Positions 4,790-39,854 of a DNA stretch of 53,879 bases are shown one piece after another. The stretch comes from an uncultured Bdellovibrionales bacterium. Its GTDB lineage: Bacteria > Patescibacteriota > Minisyncoccia > Moranbacterales > DUUL01. Within the stretch, counting starts at the first letter, position 1; every line of letters starts with the position of its first letter. The notes under the pieces were generated by a model. It did not search any database, was not told the DNA's origin, and was given only the letters and a program-made list of their open reading frames with translations. The position numbers and the translations under genes are program-made. Location: positions 1-53,879 of the forward strand of contig CAZXUS010000003.1 in the NCBI GenBank assembly GCA_964643985.1. Direction: 5' to 3'.

Positions 4790-5860
4790 ATGAAGCAAGA
4801 AAGGCTCGATAAAATCAAAGAAAATTACGCTGAATTAAAAAAAGAGTTGGAAAATCCAGCTAATTTTTCTAATCCCGAAAAACTCAAAGGAATTAATAAG
4901 GAATTAAGCGAAAAAGAAGAACTAATTGACCAAATCAAAAAATTAGAAGAAACCCAGAGACAACTTCAAGAAAATAATAAATTTCTCAAAGAAGAACAGG
5001 ATGAAGATCTTTTAGAAATGGCCAAAGCCGAAAAAGAAGAACTGGAAAATAGTTTAGAAAACTTAGAAAATACGATTGAAAAACTTCTCCTACCCTCCGA
5101 CCCTCGGGATAAAAAAAATATTATCGTTGAAATTCGAGCCGGAGCTGGAGGCGACGAAGCCAGTCTTTTTGCCGCTGAATTATTCAAAATGTATTCTCGT
5201 TACGCTGAAAAAAATAATTGGCGAACTGAAATAAATAATTCAAATTCCAATGGTTTAGGTGGCTTCAAGGAAATAATTTTTGAAATTTCTGGAAAAAATG
5301 TTTACTCAAAACTCAAATTCGAATCTGGAGTTCATCGAGTGCAAAGAATTCCCGAAACTGAAAAACAAGGACGAGTCCATACTTCCACTGTCACAGTAGC
5401 GGTTCTTCCTCGAGCCGAAAAAACCGACTTAGAAATCAGACCGGACGAACTAAGAATTGACACCTTCGCCTCTTCTGGGCCCGGTGGACAATCTGTTAAT
5501 ACCACCAATTCCGCCGTTCGAATAACCCATCTTCCAACCGGAACGATGTCTTCTTGCCAAGATCAAAAGTCTCAACTGCAAAACAAAGAAAAAGCGATGC
5601 AAATTCTTCGCTCTAGACTTTTAGCTCAAAAAGAAGAAAAAGAGCAAGCTGAGGCTTCTTCAGCCCGAAAACAACAAATTGGAACAGGTGACCGAAGCGA
5701 AAAAATTAGAACCTATAATTTTCCTCAAGACCGAATTACTGATCATCGAATCAAAACTAGCTGGTCTAATATTGAAACAATTTTAAACGGTGAATTAGAC
5801 GACATCATTAATCAAATCACTCAAAAAGATTTAGAAATGAAACTTAATGATGAAAATTAA
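4790..5860 (+). CDS. prfA: Peptide chain release factor 1
   Basis: GGQ motif ([11 protein letters not shown]) and RF1-type PxT region ([14 protein letters not shown]). 356 aa. Confidence 0.95.
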
Positions 5861-6863: not shown

Positions 6864-7003
6864 TGTCATTCCCGCTCACATCTTGTCATTTCCGCACTCA
6901 ACTTGTCATTCCCGCTTTAAACTTGTCATTCCCGCGGAGGCGGGAATCCAGAATTTTAAGATTATGACTTCTCCCCCTAGATTCCCGCCTCCGCGGGAAT
7001 GAC
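6864..7003. repeat. Family A array: four 20-bp units (TGTCATTCCCGC+N8), a terminal palindrome GTCATTCCCGCGGAGGCGGGAATCCAG (6925-6951), and an inverted copy (6981-7003)
   Basis: Units start at 6864, 6884, 6904 and 6924. The stem-loop is ATTCCCGC-GGAG-GCGGGAAT. The reverse-orientation copy is ATTCCCGCCTCCGCGGGAATGAC. Confidence 0.85.
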
Positions 7004-7104
7004 AAAGATGTTTTTACTTTTAATTTAGGCTCTTATCTTTTAACTTTTATATTATTGAAATTTTTTTATAAATACCCTATGTTTAAATAAATACCTTAAT
7101 CCTC

Positions 7105-7791: not shown

Positions 7792-8265
7792 GGGGGTGTC
7801 AGGCTTCGACAGGTTAAGTATTTTGAAATTTGCAAGCTGAGTTATATGCCTCATTAAAAGCATATAGGGATTGGCTTTAAGTGTTATTTTGTTTTCAAAA
7901 TTGAAAAGAACATTTAAAGCCAATCCCGAAACCTTATAAGTGCAAACTTATATAACAAAGCAAAAAGTGCGTTAGCATCAGCTTTCACACCCAATTTTGC
8001 TGCTGCCATAGCTTAATATAACCTATGGTCCATCGATTGATCGACTCTCAATAGATCTTATTCGGTGTCAACATTGAGATATAATTAATTTGTTTTCTTT
8101 TGGCAAATTAGTTGAATTCTACAAAAGAGGATTTATTAATTATTTTGTTTGTTTAAAGATTTTTAAATTCTATGGAATTTTATTATTCCTAAAATAAACA
8201 CTCTAAGCTTGTAGACGATTTTAAAATTTTGACACTGGACATGGGTTCAATTCCCATCACCTCCA
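7792..8265 (+). ncRNA. ssrA: tmRNA (SsrA), about 474 nt
   Basis: The 5' end GGGGGUGUCAGGCUUCGACAGG pairs with the 3' end CACCUCC-A. It has a G3:U wobble (alanine identity) and a T-arm GGGUUCAAUUCCC. CCA is not fully encoded. The tag reading frame GCA(7942)..TAA(8016) encodes ANLYNKAKSALASAFTPNFAAAIA. Confidence 0.9.
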
Positions 8266-8403
8266 CAAATTATTTTACTCTCTTAGTAGAGAGTAAAAAA
8301 TTAATTTTTAATTTTTTAATTTTTAATGACTTAATTTTTAATTACGCAAGCTCTGCCTGCGTTCATTGAGACATTGTTTAAAAAATTAAGTAATTCAAAA
8401 TTA

Positions 8404-9408: not shown

Positions 9409-9490
9409 AGTGTAGTTCGAGGCGGATTTGAGCAACGAACGAGACGCACTAAGTTGGTGCGTCGAGTGAGTAGCGGAAAATCCAACAAAG
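9409..9490 (+). repeat. Family C structured element (AGTGNAGTTCGAGG..GAGCAACG..hairpin..GAGTGAGTAGCGG), intergenic copy between rpmI and rplT
   Basis: Conserved blocks are shared with 39201-39278 (reverse strand), 42254-42345 and 52326-52466. Central hairpin is GACGCAC-TAAGTTG-GTGCGTC. Confidence 0.8.
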
Positions 9491-9523
9491 AAATACACCA
9501 AACATTTAATTTTCAATATATAC

Positions 9524-10100: not shown

Positions 10101-10165
10101 TTCAACTCTCCGCTTTGTCATCTACAATTCCCGCTTTCATCTTTGTTTTTACTGCTATCGTTTTT

Positions 10166-10190
10166 GTCATTCCCGCGGAGGCGGGAATCC
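10166..10190. repeat. Family A palindrome GTCATTCCCGCGGAGGCGGGAATCC, preceded by decayed CCCGCTTT units
   Basis: Exact match to the core at 6925-6949. Degenerate units are visible from about 10110. Confidence 0.85.
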
Positions 10191-10284
10191 AATTTATCAA
10201 ATAAAATTCAATCCCACCCAAAAAACCCAAAACAAAAAGGCACTGTTCCTCGAACACCACCTTCATAAAATATTTTTTTTAATT

Positions 10285-10768: not shown

Positions 10769-10859
10769 TCATTCCTACTCGCACTCTCAATGAAGCAAAC
10801 ATTGATAACTTTGTCATTCCCGCTCACATTCTGTCATTCCCGCGGAAGCGGGAATCCAG
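10769..10859. repeat. Family A array (GTCATTCC units) ending in the palindrome GTCATTCCCGCGGAAGCGGGAATCCAG (10833-10859)
   Basis: Same architecture as 6864-6951. The track ORF 10621..10827 overlaps it and is probably spurious. Confidence 0.8.
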
Positions 10860-16605: not shown

Positions 16606-16755
16606 GTCATTCCCGACTTGTTCAGAAATCCAAAAAAGGAAGTCTTTAGTTTAAATTTTCTGGATTCCCGCCTCCGCGGGAATGACAGAATTAGAGGCAA
16701 AAATCAAGAAATTTAGAATAACAATATTGTCATTCCCGCGGAGGCGGGAATCCAG
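16606..16755. repeat. Family A cluster: a degenerate unit (16606-16633), an inverted palindrome (16660-16686) and a direct palindrome (16729-16755)
   Basis: CTGGATTCCCGCCTCCGCGGGAATGAC and GTCATTCCCGCGGAGGCGGGAATCCAG face each other 42 bp apart, just upstream of valS. Confidence 0.85.
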
Positions 16756-16775
16756 ACTTTTATTTTACAAACTTC

Positions 16776-36752: not shown

Positions 36753-37865
36753 ATGAAATATTTTATCCGCACTTTCGGTTGTCAAATGAATTTCTCCGAT
36801 TCCGAACGAATGGCAACTTTTTTTGAACAAAATAATTTTGAACCAGCCGACAAAATCGATCAGGCTGATTTAGTGATTTTCAACACTTGCGGAGTGCGCC
36901 AAATGTCCGAACACAAAGTCTACGGCCACGTTCACAATGTTTTTAAAAAAGACCCCCAAAGAAAAAAAATTGTAGTTGTCACCGGCTGTCTCGCTCACCG
37001 CGAAGAATTTCGAAAACGACTAGAAAATAAAGTCGATTTATTTTTACCCATCAAAGACTTCCCTAAAATATTAAAATTAATCGAAAAAAACAAAACTCTT
37101 TTAAAAAAATTAAAAGCAACTAAGCTCTCCCATACACTGGAGTATGGGAGTGAAGAAAATTGCTATCTTAAAATAAAGCCCAAGTACGAGAAAAAGGAAT
37201 CCGCTCTCGTGCCAATTATGACCGGATGTAATAATTTCTGCACTTATTGCATTGTTCCCTACGCCCGCGGACCTGAATGGTCTCGACCTTTTAAGGAAAT
37301 TCAAACAGAAATTAAAAAACTATGTCCTTACACGTGTAAGGACATATGTAAGGACATAACTCTGCTAGGACAAAATGTAAACTCTTACCGAGATAACGAA
37401 ATTTCCTTCCCGATCCTGCTAAACACTCTAGCCAAAGAATTTCCCAAAATAACTTTCAGATTTCTCACTTCTCATCCCAAAGATTATTCCGATGAACTTA
37501 TCAACGTCATTGCTCAAAACAAAAATATTTCCCGTCAAATTCATCTGCCAATTCAAGCCGGCAGTGACAAAATCCTCAAAGCGATGAACCGCCCTTACAC
37601 TCAAAAATATTATTTAAACCTCATTAAAAAAACTCGAGAAAAAATTCCGGAGGCTAAAATCTCCACCGACGTAATTGTCGGTTTCCCTGGAGAGTCCGCA
37701 GAAGATTTTCAAGAAACCGTCAAAGTTTTTAAAGAAGTTAAATTCTCCGAAGCCTTCCTTAATAAATATTCCCCCCGTCCCGGCACCGCCTCTTTCAATC
37801 TCAAAGACAACATTTCTTTGGATGAGAAAAAAAGAAGAGAACAAGAATTAAGAAAATATTTCTAA
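36753..37865 (+). CDS. MiaB/RimO-family radical-SAM methylthiotransferase lacking a TRAM domain
   Basis: N-terminal FGCQMNFSDSE..NTCGVR and radical-SAM CNNFCTYCIVPYARG. The ORF ends at ..EKKRREQELRKYF, right after the core. It contains two palindromic repeats (37125-37150 and 37322-37357). Confidence 0.8.
   Translation: MKYFIRTFGCQMNFSDSERMATFFEQNNFEPADKIDQADLVIFNTCGVRQMSEHKVYGHVHNVFKKDPQRKKIVVVTGCLAHREEFRKRLENKVDLFLPIKDFPKILKLIEKNKTLLKKLKATKLSHTLEYGSEENCYLKIKPKYEKKESALVPIMTGCNNFCTYCIVPYARGPEWSRPFKEIQTEIKKLCPYTCKDICKDITLLGQNVNSYRDNEISFPILLNTLAKEFPKITFRFLTSHPKDYSDELINVIAQNKNISRQIHLPIQAGSDKILKAMNRPYTQKYYLNLIKKTREKIPEAKISTDVIVGFPGESAEDFQETVKVFKEVKFSEAFLNKYSPRPGTASFNLKDNISLDEKKRREQELRKYF
37125..37150. 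repeat. Family F palindrome inside the miaB-like CDS
   Basis: CTCTCCCATACACTGGAGTATGGGAG is identical to 13285-13310 and is read in frame as ..LSHTLEYGS.. Confidence 0.85.
37322..37357. repeat. Perfect 24-bp palindrome ATGTCCTTACACGTGTAAGGACAT plus a 12-bp tandem copy, inside the miaB-like CDS
   Basis: Read in frame as ..LCPYTCKDICKDI.., at the position where family members usually carry a short helix before ..ITLLGQNVNSY. Confidence 0.8.
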
Positions 37866-37937
37866 ATTCAATTTACAATAAACCAATTTACAATTTATAA
37901 TAAATTTTCAATTATTTAATTTTCAATTTCCGCAAAG

Positions 37938-37973
37938 GCTCGCCTCGCCATAGCCTTAACGAAGGCGGGCGAG
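37938..37973. repeat. Family B1 element (GCTCGCCTCGCCATAGCCTTAACGAAGGCGGGCGAG)
   Basis: Related to 7585-7617 and 8404-8437. Confidence 0.7.
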
Positions 37974-38079
37974 AATCCAGATTAAAAAATAAAAATTAGC
38001 AAATAAACAGCTAAAAAGAGAAGTTCTCAGACTCCCCTTTTAAAATTGATCTGATTATTTAACCAGATATTTTTGAAAA

Positions 38080-38259
38080 TCAATGTTCACATTTATGAAA
38101 TTTTGTTCTTTCGCTTTTAGAAGAGTTCCCGGTTAGCCTTTTATTCAATTGGCTAAGCCAAGCATAAATTCTCAATCTCCATGAAAATTTTGGCTCAAAA
38201 TATTCAGATCCTTTTCCGCCCTGTTTTTTCAATTTCTCATACAATGATTCTTTTTTCAT
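38080..38259 (-). CDS. Hypothetical micro-protein (59 aa), below the ORF-track cutoff
   Basis: AAAGGAG lies 6 nt upstream of the ATG at 38259. My translation is MKKESLYEKLKKQGGKGSEYFEPKFSWRLRIYAWLSQLNKRLTGNSSKSERTKFHKCEH*. Confidence 0.45.
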   Translation of the reverse strand: MKKESLYEKLKKQGGKGSEYFEPKFSWRLRIYAWLSQLNKRLTGNSSKSERTKFHKCEH

Positions 38260-38357
38260 TACCCGCTCCTTTTACAAAGAATTTAATTATTTAAAATCAC
38301 ATTTTAGTTTCATTATCTCAATTCATTTTGACTATTATCAATTTTGGAATGATTTTT

Positions 38358-38393
38358 ATTGACCAAGGAAACTAATTAGTTTCCTTGGTCAAT
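38358..38393. repeat. Perfect 36-bp palindrome ATTGACCAAGGAAACTAA|TTAGTTTCCTTGGTCAAT
   Basis: 18-bp arms, no spacer, no flanking T-run. Sits between two micro-ORFs. Confidence 0.9.
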
Positions 38394-38408
38394 CTGGTCG
38401 AATGCTTT

Positions 38409-38537
38409 TTAAATAGTGAACCTCATCTCGCGTATTCTCCTAGGTAGCGGCCTTCTCTTGAGTAATTCAATCATTTTTTTTGCCTTTCTACATTTTTCAA
38501 CAAATTCTTTTCTTTTTTCTTTATCTTGCTTTAGCAT
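38409..38537 (-). CDS. Hypothetical very basic micro-protein (42 aa)
   Basis: AAGGAGG lies 6 nt upstream of the ATG at 38537. Translation is MLKQDKEKRKEFVEKCRKAKKMIELLKRRPLPRRIREMRFTI*. Confidence 0.45.
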   Translation of the reverse strand: MLKQDKEKRKEFVEKCRKAKKMIELLKRRPLPRRIREMRFTI

Positions 38538-38755
38538 TTTGCACCTCCTTAAATTTGAAAATCTAAAACAATGCCCTCTCTAAAATGTTTTCAGGTAACG
38601 CAGAAAAAAAATTTCCTGCAAGTAAAAATTTTTTATCCCAGAGATTGTTAACTATCAACCTTCAACGAGATTATTCCGCACAATACCAGAAATGAACCAA
38701 AGTAAACAAGTCTCTCTCCATTGACGGGTAATCCAATTGCAGTGTTTGGATTCGA

Positions 38756-38857
38756 CTAAACCGAACAAAATCCCACAATAATTGCCAAACCGCCGAATAT
38801 TAGAAGAGTGTTGAAGCGTCTATAAAACTTTCTCGAAAACGCTACTATTTTTTTCAC
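38756..38857 (-). CDS. Hypothetical hydrophobic micro-protein (33 aa); the frame stays open for 35 more codons after an in-frame TAG
   Basis: AAGGAGGG lies 7 nt upstream of the GTG at 38857. Translation is VKKIVAFSRKFYRRFNTLLIFGGLAIIVGFCSV*, then SNPNTAIGLPVNGERLVYFGSFLVLCGIISLKVDS* (to 38648). Confidence 0.4.
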   Translation of the reverse strand: MKKIVAFSRKFYRRFNTLLIFGGLAIIVGFCSV

Positions 38858-39032
38858 TTAAAATCCCTCCTTAATTAAGTTAATAAAAACCACCTAAAAA
38901 TATTTTCTCAATAAATCAAGTTATTGTCAATCTCTAGCAGCACAAACTCAAAACCTTTCTTCTTATCGGATTTCGATATTCGAAAGCCATTGAAAATTAA
39001 ATCATTGAAAATTGATTGTAAATTGAAAATTG

Positions 39033-39854
39033 TTAATTGTAAATTAGTACCACTATCTCTCCTTTGACTTTATCTGGATTTTCTTCGTAATATTTTTTAA
39101 TATCAGCGACTTCTCCGCGTTTTATTTCTTCAAATATCTTAGTTAATTCTCGCCCTAAAATTATTTTCTTGCCTGAACTACGAGTTTGGCACATTTCTTT
39201 GTCAAAACCTCCGCTACTCACTCCACGTACTTTCAAATACGCTTCTTTGCGTTGCTCGGCTTTTCCTCGAACTGCACTCAAATTCATATTTCCTGATTCT
39301 TGGGAATTTTCAAATTCTTCTTGTAATTTCTCTATTAATTCCAAATTTTTCATCAAACGATAAGGAGATTCATAATAAAGAGTTGGATAATTAGAAGCTA
39401 GAACTTCTCGGAAAAATTTCTCCCGACCTTTTTTGTTGGGTGGAAAACCCATAAAAGTGAAACGAGTCATATTAATTCCAGCCACGGAAACCAAAGCACT
39501 CAAAGCATTAGCTCCTGGGATGGGAGTTATTTTTATATCATTTCCAAAAAATTCCAAAGCACGTTCAATCAAAAGATTACCCGGATCAGAAATTCCTGGC
39601 GTTCCTGCATCGGTCACCAAAGCTACTTTCTCAACCTGCTTCATCTCCTCTAAAATCTTCCTAATCTGATTATCATTACTTTGCTGATGATAAGCTTTCA
39701 AGGGCTTAACAATTTCATACTTGTTTAGTAAGACTTTAGTTTTTCTAGTATCCTCGCAAAGAATAAAATCTGCCTCCTTAAGGGTTCGAACCGCTCGAAA
39801 GGTAATGTCCTCCAAATTGCCAATCGGCGTAGCAACAATCGAAAATTCTAACAT
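39033..39854 (-). CDS. rsmI: 16S rRNA (cytidine1402-2'-O)-methyltransferase RsmI with an internal insertion of about 45 aa
   Basis: ..VATPIGNLEDITFRAVRTLKEADFILCEDTR.., ..TDAGTPGISDPG.., ..GRELTKIFEE.. The insertion is ..ENSQESGNMNLSAVRGKAEQRKEAYLKVRGVSSGGFDKEMCQTRSSG.. Confidence 0.85.
   Translation of the reverse strand: MLEFSIVATPIGNLEDITFRAVRTLKEADFILCEDTRKTKVLLNKYEIVKPLKAYHQQSNDNQIRKILEEMKQVEKVALVTDAGTPGISDPGNLLIERALEFFGNDIKITPIPGANALSALVSVAGINMTRFTFMGFPPNKKGREKFFREVLASNYPTLYYESPYRLMKNLELIEKLQEEFENSQESGNMNLSAVRGKAEQRKEAYLKVRGVSSGGFDKEMCQTRSSGKKIILGRELTKIFEEIKRGEVADIKKYYEENPDKVKGEIVVLIYN
39201..39278 (-). repeat. Family C element inserted in frame in rsmI
   Basis: The - strand reads AGTGCAGTTCGAGGAAAAGCCGAGCAACGCAAAGAAGCGTATTTGAAAGTACGTGGAGTGAGTAGCGGAGGTTTTGAC. 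It has the same length and conserved blocks as 9412-9489. Confidence 0.8.

Follow-up and report, generated by a model that had tools for sequence, protein, structure and literature searches.

Several described systems come close to the element considered here, a 1.17-kb island in a 53,879-nt stretch of DNA from a Patescibacteria genome (the window in the following; the stretch is contig C3 of a 1.05-Mb genome with 32% GC in 67 contigs). The island spans positions 37866–39032, the spacer in which a miaB-like gene (plus strand) and an rsmI-like gene (minus strand) converge; it is bracketed by an inverted repeat and contains three micro open reading frames (ORFs) led by Shine–Dalgarno (SD) sequences, a GC-rich hairpin repeat termed family B1 and a perfect palindrome. 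Repetitive extragenic palindromic (REP) sequences and bacterial interspersed mosaic elements (BIME), enterobacterial repetitive intergenic consensus (ERIC) sequences and Correia-type repeats are, like the arms of this inverted repeat, short, multi-copy and intergenic, often located behind genes, able to pair when facing each other and conserved across relatives, and the B1 hairpin resembles a classic REP-type palindrome. Integration hot spots and variable islets have in common with the island the conserved flanks, here miaB and rsmI, enclosing unrelated cargo that differs among the five genomes of the genus. The small membrane toxins of type I toxin–antitoxin systems, such as Fst, TisB and Hok, like the 33-aa ORF of the island, stay below 60 aa, follow an SD sequence, form one hydrophobic helix and lie in accessory regions.

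The island is an ordinary kind of feature, and we consider it likely that it represents an accessory spacer, specific to this strain, which occupies a slot prone to recombination between the convergent core genes miaB and rsmI. Its parts had been described accurately in the initial annotation. No ORF of at least 60 aa lies between the miaB-like and the rsmI-like gene, the longest one having 59 aa, and the three minus-strand micro-ORFs with strong SD sequences are placed exactly as claimed. The TTGACA-type −35 box, the perfect 36-bp palindrome and the B1 repeat, which is multi-copy in its own genome, were all recovered, and the inverted repeat of 25 nt with one mismatch extends to 44 nt at 91% (37884–37927/38989–39032).

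The miaB–rsmI spacer within the genus

Checking the synteny of the locus, as proposed together with the initial annotation, showed that miaB and rsmI lie next to each other in convergent orientation in every one of the five genus genomes (5/5), with different cargo in the spacer of each. The two flanking genes are as follows:

36753–37865, plus strand: miaB-like radical-SAM methylthiotransferase gene, left flank (Pfam Radical_SAM 1.1e-26, UPF0004 2.8e-25)
39033–39854, minus strand: rsmI-like 16S rRNA methyltransferase gene, right flank (Pfam TP_methylase 3.1e-24)

Their orthologs in the four same-genus genomes are 68–83% (miaB) and 76–88% (rsmI) identical. The spacers between them have these lengths and contents:

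G001: 595 nt, a 77-aa ORF
G002: 1010 nt, a 200-aa orphan ORF
Own genome: 1167 nt, the three micro-ORFs
G003: 1583 nt, an HD-domain gene, a NUDIX fragment and a SnoaL-like gene
G004: 4363 nt, several genes without family matches

We detected no protein similarity between the spacer cargos of the relatives and the island, and at the DNA level the island interior (~38010–38985) matched nothing else in its own genome, nothing in 40 relatives and, using blastn, nothing in phages and plasmids. A phage or plasmid origin was rejected, as blastn gave no match. The spacer is therefore best described by its variability: it is a hypervariable accessory slot, documenting for the reduced genomes of the candidate phyla radiation (CPR) a slot of fast accessory-DNA turnover in a ~1-Mb genome. 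The GC content of the island is not set apart from its surroundings, and Rfam scans of the whole window at the gathering threshold and of the island by E-value gave no family, the only hits being noise from miRNA and snoRNA models far below threshold.

Two side observations concern the flanks and the cargo of this locus. The rsmI product comprises 273 aa here and 228–233 aa in the four same-genus genomes; the extra ~40 residues (around residues 185–230) coincide with a repeat that is also present at window positions 9457–9503. In the longest spacer (G004:C6; L028 4050–4736), a 228-aa ORF consists of about seven tandem repeats (...CQAGIPGL...) and adjoins 88-aa and 386-aa ORFs without a Pfam match.

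An AT-rich repeat at gene ends

The two arms that appear to bound the island were analyzed as members of a repeat family built from the 10-mer AATTTWCAAT:

37866–37927, plus strand: left arm, AT-rich repeat with four AATTTWCAAT copies (37870, 37885, 37903, 37918), beginning directly after the miaB stop codon
38989–39045, minus strand: right arm, AT-rich repeat with five AATTTWCAAT copies, overlapping the last codons and the stop codon of rsmI

The arms are a property of gene ends, not of the island. Genome-wide, the 10-mer is found 188 times versus ~40 copies expected, and its clusters (n = 30) lie, with a single exception, in spacers between long ORFs; counted from the cluster table, 17 of the 30 are less than 100 nt away from a gene 3′ end. 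The density of the 10-mer amounts to 1.66 copies per kb in convergent, 0.50 in co-directional and 0.07 in divergent spacers, and the spacers holding at least two copies include seven convergent and zero divergent ones (Fisher p 0.014). Moreover, nine of the ten clusters in convergent spacers, counted from the same table, are in sense orientation relative to the preceding gene. This distribution points to a role of the arms at gene 3′ ends, where they could serve as transcript-end or processing signals or as a protein-binding array. Two convergent genes, each with a gene-end repeat in its own orientation, therefore create the apparent bounding inverted repeat, illustrating that a striking inverted repeat can have a trivial origin.

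The arm sequence (~44–60 nt) recurs at dozens of sites in its own genome and is matched at 81–98% identity in 34 of the 40 relatives, reaching other families of the order. For comparison, miaB in G007, which belongs to another genus of the same family, is just 58–64% identical; across the order, the AT-rich gene-end repeat is conserved far better than proteins. A literature search found no account of such repeats in Patescibacteria. Within the genus, the repeat recurs at these gene ends, following the 3′ end of rsmI in G002 and that of miaB in G004, although the cargo there is unrelated. As the arms are kept while the cargo differs, they are tied to the site rather than to the cargo. Facing arm pairs enclosing loops of 15–121 nt were additionally observed at C4, C7 and C35.

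Several further repeats and arm pairs were encountered alongside this analysis. A short hairpin motif, TGCACCCAAAGGGCA followed by TTATAAA, adjoins the AT-rich repeats at the miaB 3′ end in G002 (L026 ~1200–1225); a variant is found at the miaB 3′ end in G004 (L028 ~5080–5100), and the motif also occurs in the own genome (C21 ~7815–7835). At G002:C35 (L009 1500–1970), a four-helix-bundle gene of 120 aa (Pfam 23S_rRNA_IVP 2.4e-15, IVP in the following) is closely enclosed by an arm pair that overlaps its first and last codons, and at the orthologous locus of the own genome (C21) the IVP gene is present and the arms are absent. The own ~1-Mb genome holds seven genes of this type (C21, C9, C31, two at C27, C7 and C10), two of them with an in-frame stop; at C27, AATTTWCAAT copies flank an IVP pseudogene on both sides. 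The idea that the arms represent the ends of a four-helix-bundle element was rejected as a rule, since motif copies lie near only one of the seven IVP genes in the own genome. Elsewhere in the window, the tmRNA gene (7792–8268) is bracketed by an 81-nt inverted repeat with 88% complementarity (7563–7643/8378–8458).

Three small genes and two hairpins

Between the arms, the minus strand carries the following features:

38756–38857, minus strand: small gene 1, 33-aa hydrophobic ORF (open frame 38648–38857); SD AAGGAGGG (38872–38865), 7-nt spacing, GTG at 38857
38409–38537, minus strand: small gene 2, 42-aa very basic protein; SD AAGGAGG (38550–38544), 6-nt spacing, ATG at 38537
38080–38259, minus strand: small gene 3, 59-aa basic protein; SD AAAGGAG (38272–38266), 6-nt spacing, ATG at 38259
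38902–38930, minus strand: promoter-like site TTGACA-17-GAAAAT (with TG) upstream of small gene 1, a consensus match only
38312–38341, minus strand: promoter-like site TTGATA-18-GATAAT (with TG) upstream of small gene 3, a consensus match only
38358–38393, no strand assigned: perfect 36-bp palindrome, terminator-like hairpin after small gene 2 (16-bp stem, −24.2 kcal/mol, z −7.7)
37926–37982, no strand assigned: GC-rich REP-like hairpin repeat of family B1 (−23.7 kcal/mol on the minus strand, z −2.0)

The combination of AAGGAG, a start codon and an ORF of 30–99 aa outside long ORFs occurs 27 times genome-wide (246 kb), and three of these occurrences fall into the island, where 0.13 would be expected. 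By itself, a 59-aa frame would be no surprise in 1.1 kb of DNA with 32% GC; the micro-ORFs are credible because of their SD signals and their homologs, and not because of frame length. Judged from sequence comparison, the 42-aa and 59-aa ORFs are real but extremely rare small-protein genes, and the three micro-ORFs match different, unrelated partners in separate contexts. Searches of the peptides and their homologs against Pfam, NCBIfam, PADLOC, PHROGs and PDB sequences returned nothing usable.

For the 42-aa protein we identified a 56-aa homolog in the same-genus genome G004 (C4:103324–103440), located at another locus beside lepA, with 49% identity over 35 aa and a shared C-terminus (E 4.4e-7; blastp 2e-11). 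The proportions of nonsynonymous (pN) and synonymous (pS) differences between the two genes are 0.32 and 0.81, respectively, the latter being saturated. No third member of this family was found in 5.8 billion proteins, genome contigs and metagenome contigs. The conservation continues beyond the coding region: the 36-bp hairpin lies 15 nt past the stop codon of the 42-aa gene and a homologous hairpin lies 22 nt past the stop codon in G004. In the DNA alignment, the stem CAAGGAAAC-loop-GTTTCCTTG of the island corresponds to CGGGGAAAC-loop-GTTTCCCCG in G004, where AA/TT replaces GG/CC, so that two stem positions are altered on both sides by compensatory changes. The 36-bp palindrome is therefore a conserved 3′ hairpin of small gene 2. 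It combines the post-gene position and the stable stem-loop of an intrinsic terminator with the absence of a U-tract, the stem being followed by AAAAAUCAUUCC on the minus strand, and most likely it ends the small gene 2 transcript.

In G004, the 56-aa homolog is part of a run of small SD-led ORFs (L043 1279–1431 and 1749–2763; C4) that diverges from lepA, comprising a 50-aa basic ORF upstream of the homolog and membrane-like ORFs of 82, 56 and 171 aa downstream.

Word-based and genome searches with the 59-aa ORF gave no relatives. An exhaustive HMMER search of 1.84 billion proteins yielded one full-length homolog, P0006, which comprises 61 aa and is 41% identical (E 2.8e-7; blastp 3e-17). The two proteins have in common an MKKE start, the FSW.LR and RTKF motifs and a C-terminal Cys, and pS exceeds pN (0.61 versus 0.36). 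The P0006 gene, which has its own SD sequence and is followed by a hairpin, adjoins dciA-dnaN-dnaA on a metagenome contig of a distant relative whose DnaA and DnaN are 49% and 39% identical to those of the own genome. Two tandem-repeat proteins of 834 and 535 aa, also matched in the exhaustive search, were rejected, as their scores add up from many weak repeats of a 29-residue stretch.

AlphaFold models of the 59-aa protein and of the 56-aa homolog are both helical and of low confidence (pLDDT 66 and 73). We observed no match for the 56-aa model in the PDB using Foldseek and no look-alikes of either protein in the ESM Atlas. The charge and the predicted helicity of the small proteins suggest binding to nucleic acids or membrane surfaces; as a guess, nucleic acid or some larger partner could be the binding target of these basic helical proteins.

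The 33-aa ORF is basic at its N-terminus and hydrophobic over a 17-residue stretch at its C-terminus. Its in-frame TAG (38756–38758) falls in the middle of the hydrophobic stretch, and the frame remains open and hydrophobic for 35 further codons; TAG is an ordinary stop codon in this genome, ending 186 of 894 long ORFs. Small gene 1 is thus probably a nonsense-interrupted 69-codon gene for a two-helix membrane peptide. The 69-residue read-through aligns without gaps and in constant register to transmembrane helices 2 and 3 (TM2–TM3) of DUF2304 proteins from the same order (pairwise blastp 2e-6), including the GG[ML]A and IG motifs. A local hidden Markov model (HMM) of this family scored it at 17.9 bits, the best of 20438 six-frame genome segments, and hhalign gave a probability of 82%. 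The alignment covers profile positions 34–87 of 117, and the read-through is devoid of the invariant C-terminal residues of the family alignment. The Pfam DUF2304 model (PF10066) did not match the read-through with E-values up to 10, nor did it match anything genome-wide with E-values up to 1. Compared with DUF2304 proteins, the read-through lacks the first helix as well as the conserved C-terminal LLSAIE.LEQQ helix, the locus has no glycosyltransferase neighbour and identity reaches only 21–30%. We rejected a recent pseudogene of the DUF2304 gene of the genus, given the 21% identity to the copy in G004.

The B1 hairpin has at least 7 further copies in the genome that align over ~55 nt. Like the arms, it is multi-copy, intergenic and conserved, as is characteristic of REP-like repeats, and it likely forms a 3′ hairpin of a minus-strand small-gene transcript. 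A GC-rich palindromic repeat family with the core CATTCCCGCGGAGGCGGGAATCCAG was noted at window positions 6864–7015, 10144–10192, 10811–10859 and 16647–16756, in places as pairs in tandem or facing each other. The B1 hairpin, which is longer, resembles an expanded version of this CATTCCCGCGGAGGCGGGAATCCAG-core repeat with an identical outer stem.

Together, these results fill a stretch previously left empty with two genes for small proteins (42 and 59 aa) and a third, broken gene. By-products of the analysis are a conserved module of a small gene plus a hairpin and an order-wide AT-rich gene-end repeat.

Alternative readings and known systems

In the arrangement that we propose, miaB and rsmI are each trailed, in their own orientation, by the AT-rich gene-end repeat of the lineage, and three independent minus-strand small genes lie between the facing repeats. 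The site at 38930–38902 could drive small genes 1 and 2 in a transcript ending at the conserved hairpin (38393–38358), and the site at 38341–38312 could drive small gene 3, with an end near the GC-rich hairpin (37975–37930) and the left arm. The gene-end repeats, in turn, may favour the turnover of cargo in the slot.

Several observations weigh against this account. The promoters and terminators on which it draws are consensus matches or folds only; a scan of the region found no canonical terminator, neither hairpin having a U-tract. The miaB–rsmI spacer of G001 is without arms. The arms are also not strictly vertical, because the S1–IVP–ftsX locus carries an arm pair in G002 and none in the own genome; the arms as such may thus be able to spread, and a mobile reading keeps some room. 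Each small-protein family has two known members, so that conservation is that of single pairs. Finally, the putative DUF2304-like core of small gene 1 shows a borderline resemblance: its score would no longer hold once corrected for a search of 300 genomes, and the intact DUF2304 gene in the same-genus genome G004 shares only 21% identity with the fragment.

The initial annotation had considered a mobile cassette, a toxin–antitoxin-like or membrane-peptide module, and the debris of a decayed gene. If the island were a mobile cassette, its arms would be the terminal inverted repeats of a non-autonomous element, similar to a miniature inverted-repeat transposable element (MITE) or an intervening sequence (IVS), that inserted with the three small genes as a unit. 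The 91% complementarity of the 44-nt arms is in line with this, as are the very similar arm pair around the IVP gene at G002:C35, the motif copies around the IVP pseudogene at C27, the short-loop pairs at C4, C7 and C35, and the presence of arms at a locus of one genus member whose ortholog in another lacks them. However, the hallmarks of a MITE are found here only as far as the terminal repeats go, and even these exist mostly as solo copies beside gene 3′ ends throughout the genome and the lineage. Copies of the whole element were not found, the interior being single-copy in the genome and absent from the 40 relatives, so that just the arms and the B1 hairpin recur. No direct repeats indicating a target-site duplication lie outside the arms, which abut or overlap the flanking stop codons. 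G002 and G004 carry arms at the same gene ends around unrelated cargo and offer no empty site, with only G001 being without arms. Furthermore, homologs of both small genes sit elsewhere without arms around them, and six of the seven IVP genes of the own genome are free of arms. We thus regard insertion as a unit as unlikely. To a different role of the arms we assign a similarly low probability: the gene-end repeats could also serve as recombination or capture sites, with facing pairs folding into a long hairpin and its loop providing the insertion slot. Were this the case, convergent spacers of these Patescibacteria would be miniature cassette-exchange sites for small genes; two examples of an occupied slot would then be the miaB–rsmI island and, in G002, the four-helix-bundle gene between its arms.

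According to the debris reading, the micro-ORFs are chance frames or pieces of one decayed gene in non-coding DNA from which no protein is made. A 59-codon open frame is, by our estimate, not rare in DNA of this length and composition, one of the frames contains an in-frame stop, and word-based searches gave no relatives of the 59-aa ORF. This part of the proposal holds for the 33-aa ORF with its in-frame TAG. It does not hold for the 42-aa and 59-aa ORFs, which have separate full-length homologs that retain length and termini, with pS > pN, and the excess of three strong SD–start pairs on one strand likewise argues against chance. A six-frame reading of the island and a tblastn search with the cargo frames of the relatives, aimed at a degraded larger gene, recovered only the 56-aa homolog and the repeat arms, and revealed no similarity to the cargo genes of the relatives. 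As the three ORFs pair with different, unrelated partners in separate contexts, they are not pieces of one gene, and we judge debris as an explanation of the whole island to be very improbable. A toxin–antitoxin module, in which the 33-aa peptide would be a type I-like membrane toxin controlled by the basic peptides or by an antisense RNA, appears even harder to maintain. The strong SD sequence of the 33-aa ORF, its basic N-terminus, its C-terminal hydrophobic stretch and its location in a variable accessory slot are those of a small hydrophobic toxin gene. Yet searches of Pfam, NCBIfam, PADLOC and PHROGs linked none of the peptides to a toxin–antitoxin or defence family, the island contains no Rfam family, and a consensus scan, in itself a weak one, detected no plus-strand promoter-like site for an antisense RNA between 37930 and 39060. 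In addition, the hydrophobic stretch is cut at the TAG while the frame stays open, which points to a truncated two-helix protein, and no such hydrophobic partner accompanies the homologs of the two basic proteins at their own loci. Apart from the hydrophobicity of the peptide, nothing supports a toxin–antitoxin module. The preferred reading of the island thus remains that of an accessory spacer between two core genes.

How far this spacer departs from the known systems can be stated for each of them. The 33-aa ORF differs from type I toxins such as Fst, TisB and Hok in having no antisense RNA signal and no family match, and in looking like the truncated part of a longer frame. In contrast to integron gene cassettes, which form an array, the arms are scattered beside core genes. 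Compared with integration hot spots, the slot operates on a very small scale (0.6–4.4 kb), and the cargo here is limited to genes below 60 aa; we saw no integrase, tRNA or phage or plasmid similarity at the site, though no search aimed at integrases was run. The arms are also unlike REP/BIME, ERIC and Correia elements in their build, being strongly AT-rich and composed of 10-mer copies (AATTTWCAAT) that often follow each other at 15-nt distances, and an arm on its own forms no palindrome. They further differ from these elements in their preservation across different families of an order at the 81–98% identity given above.

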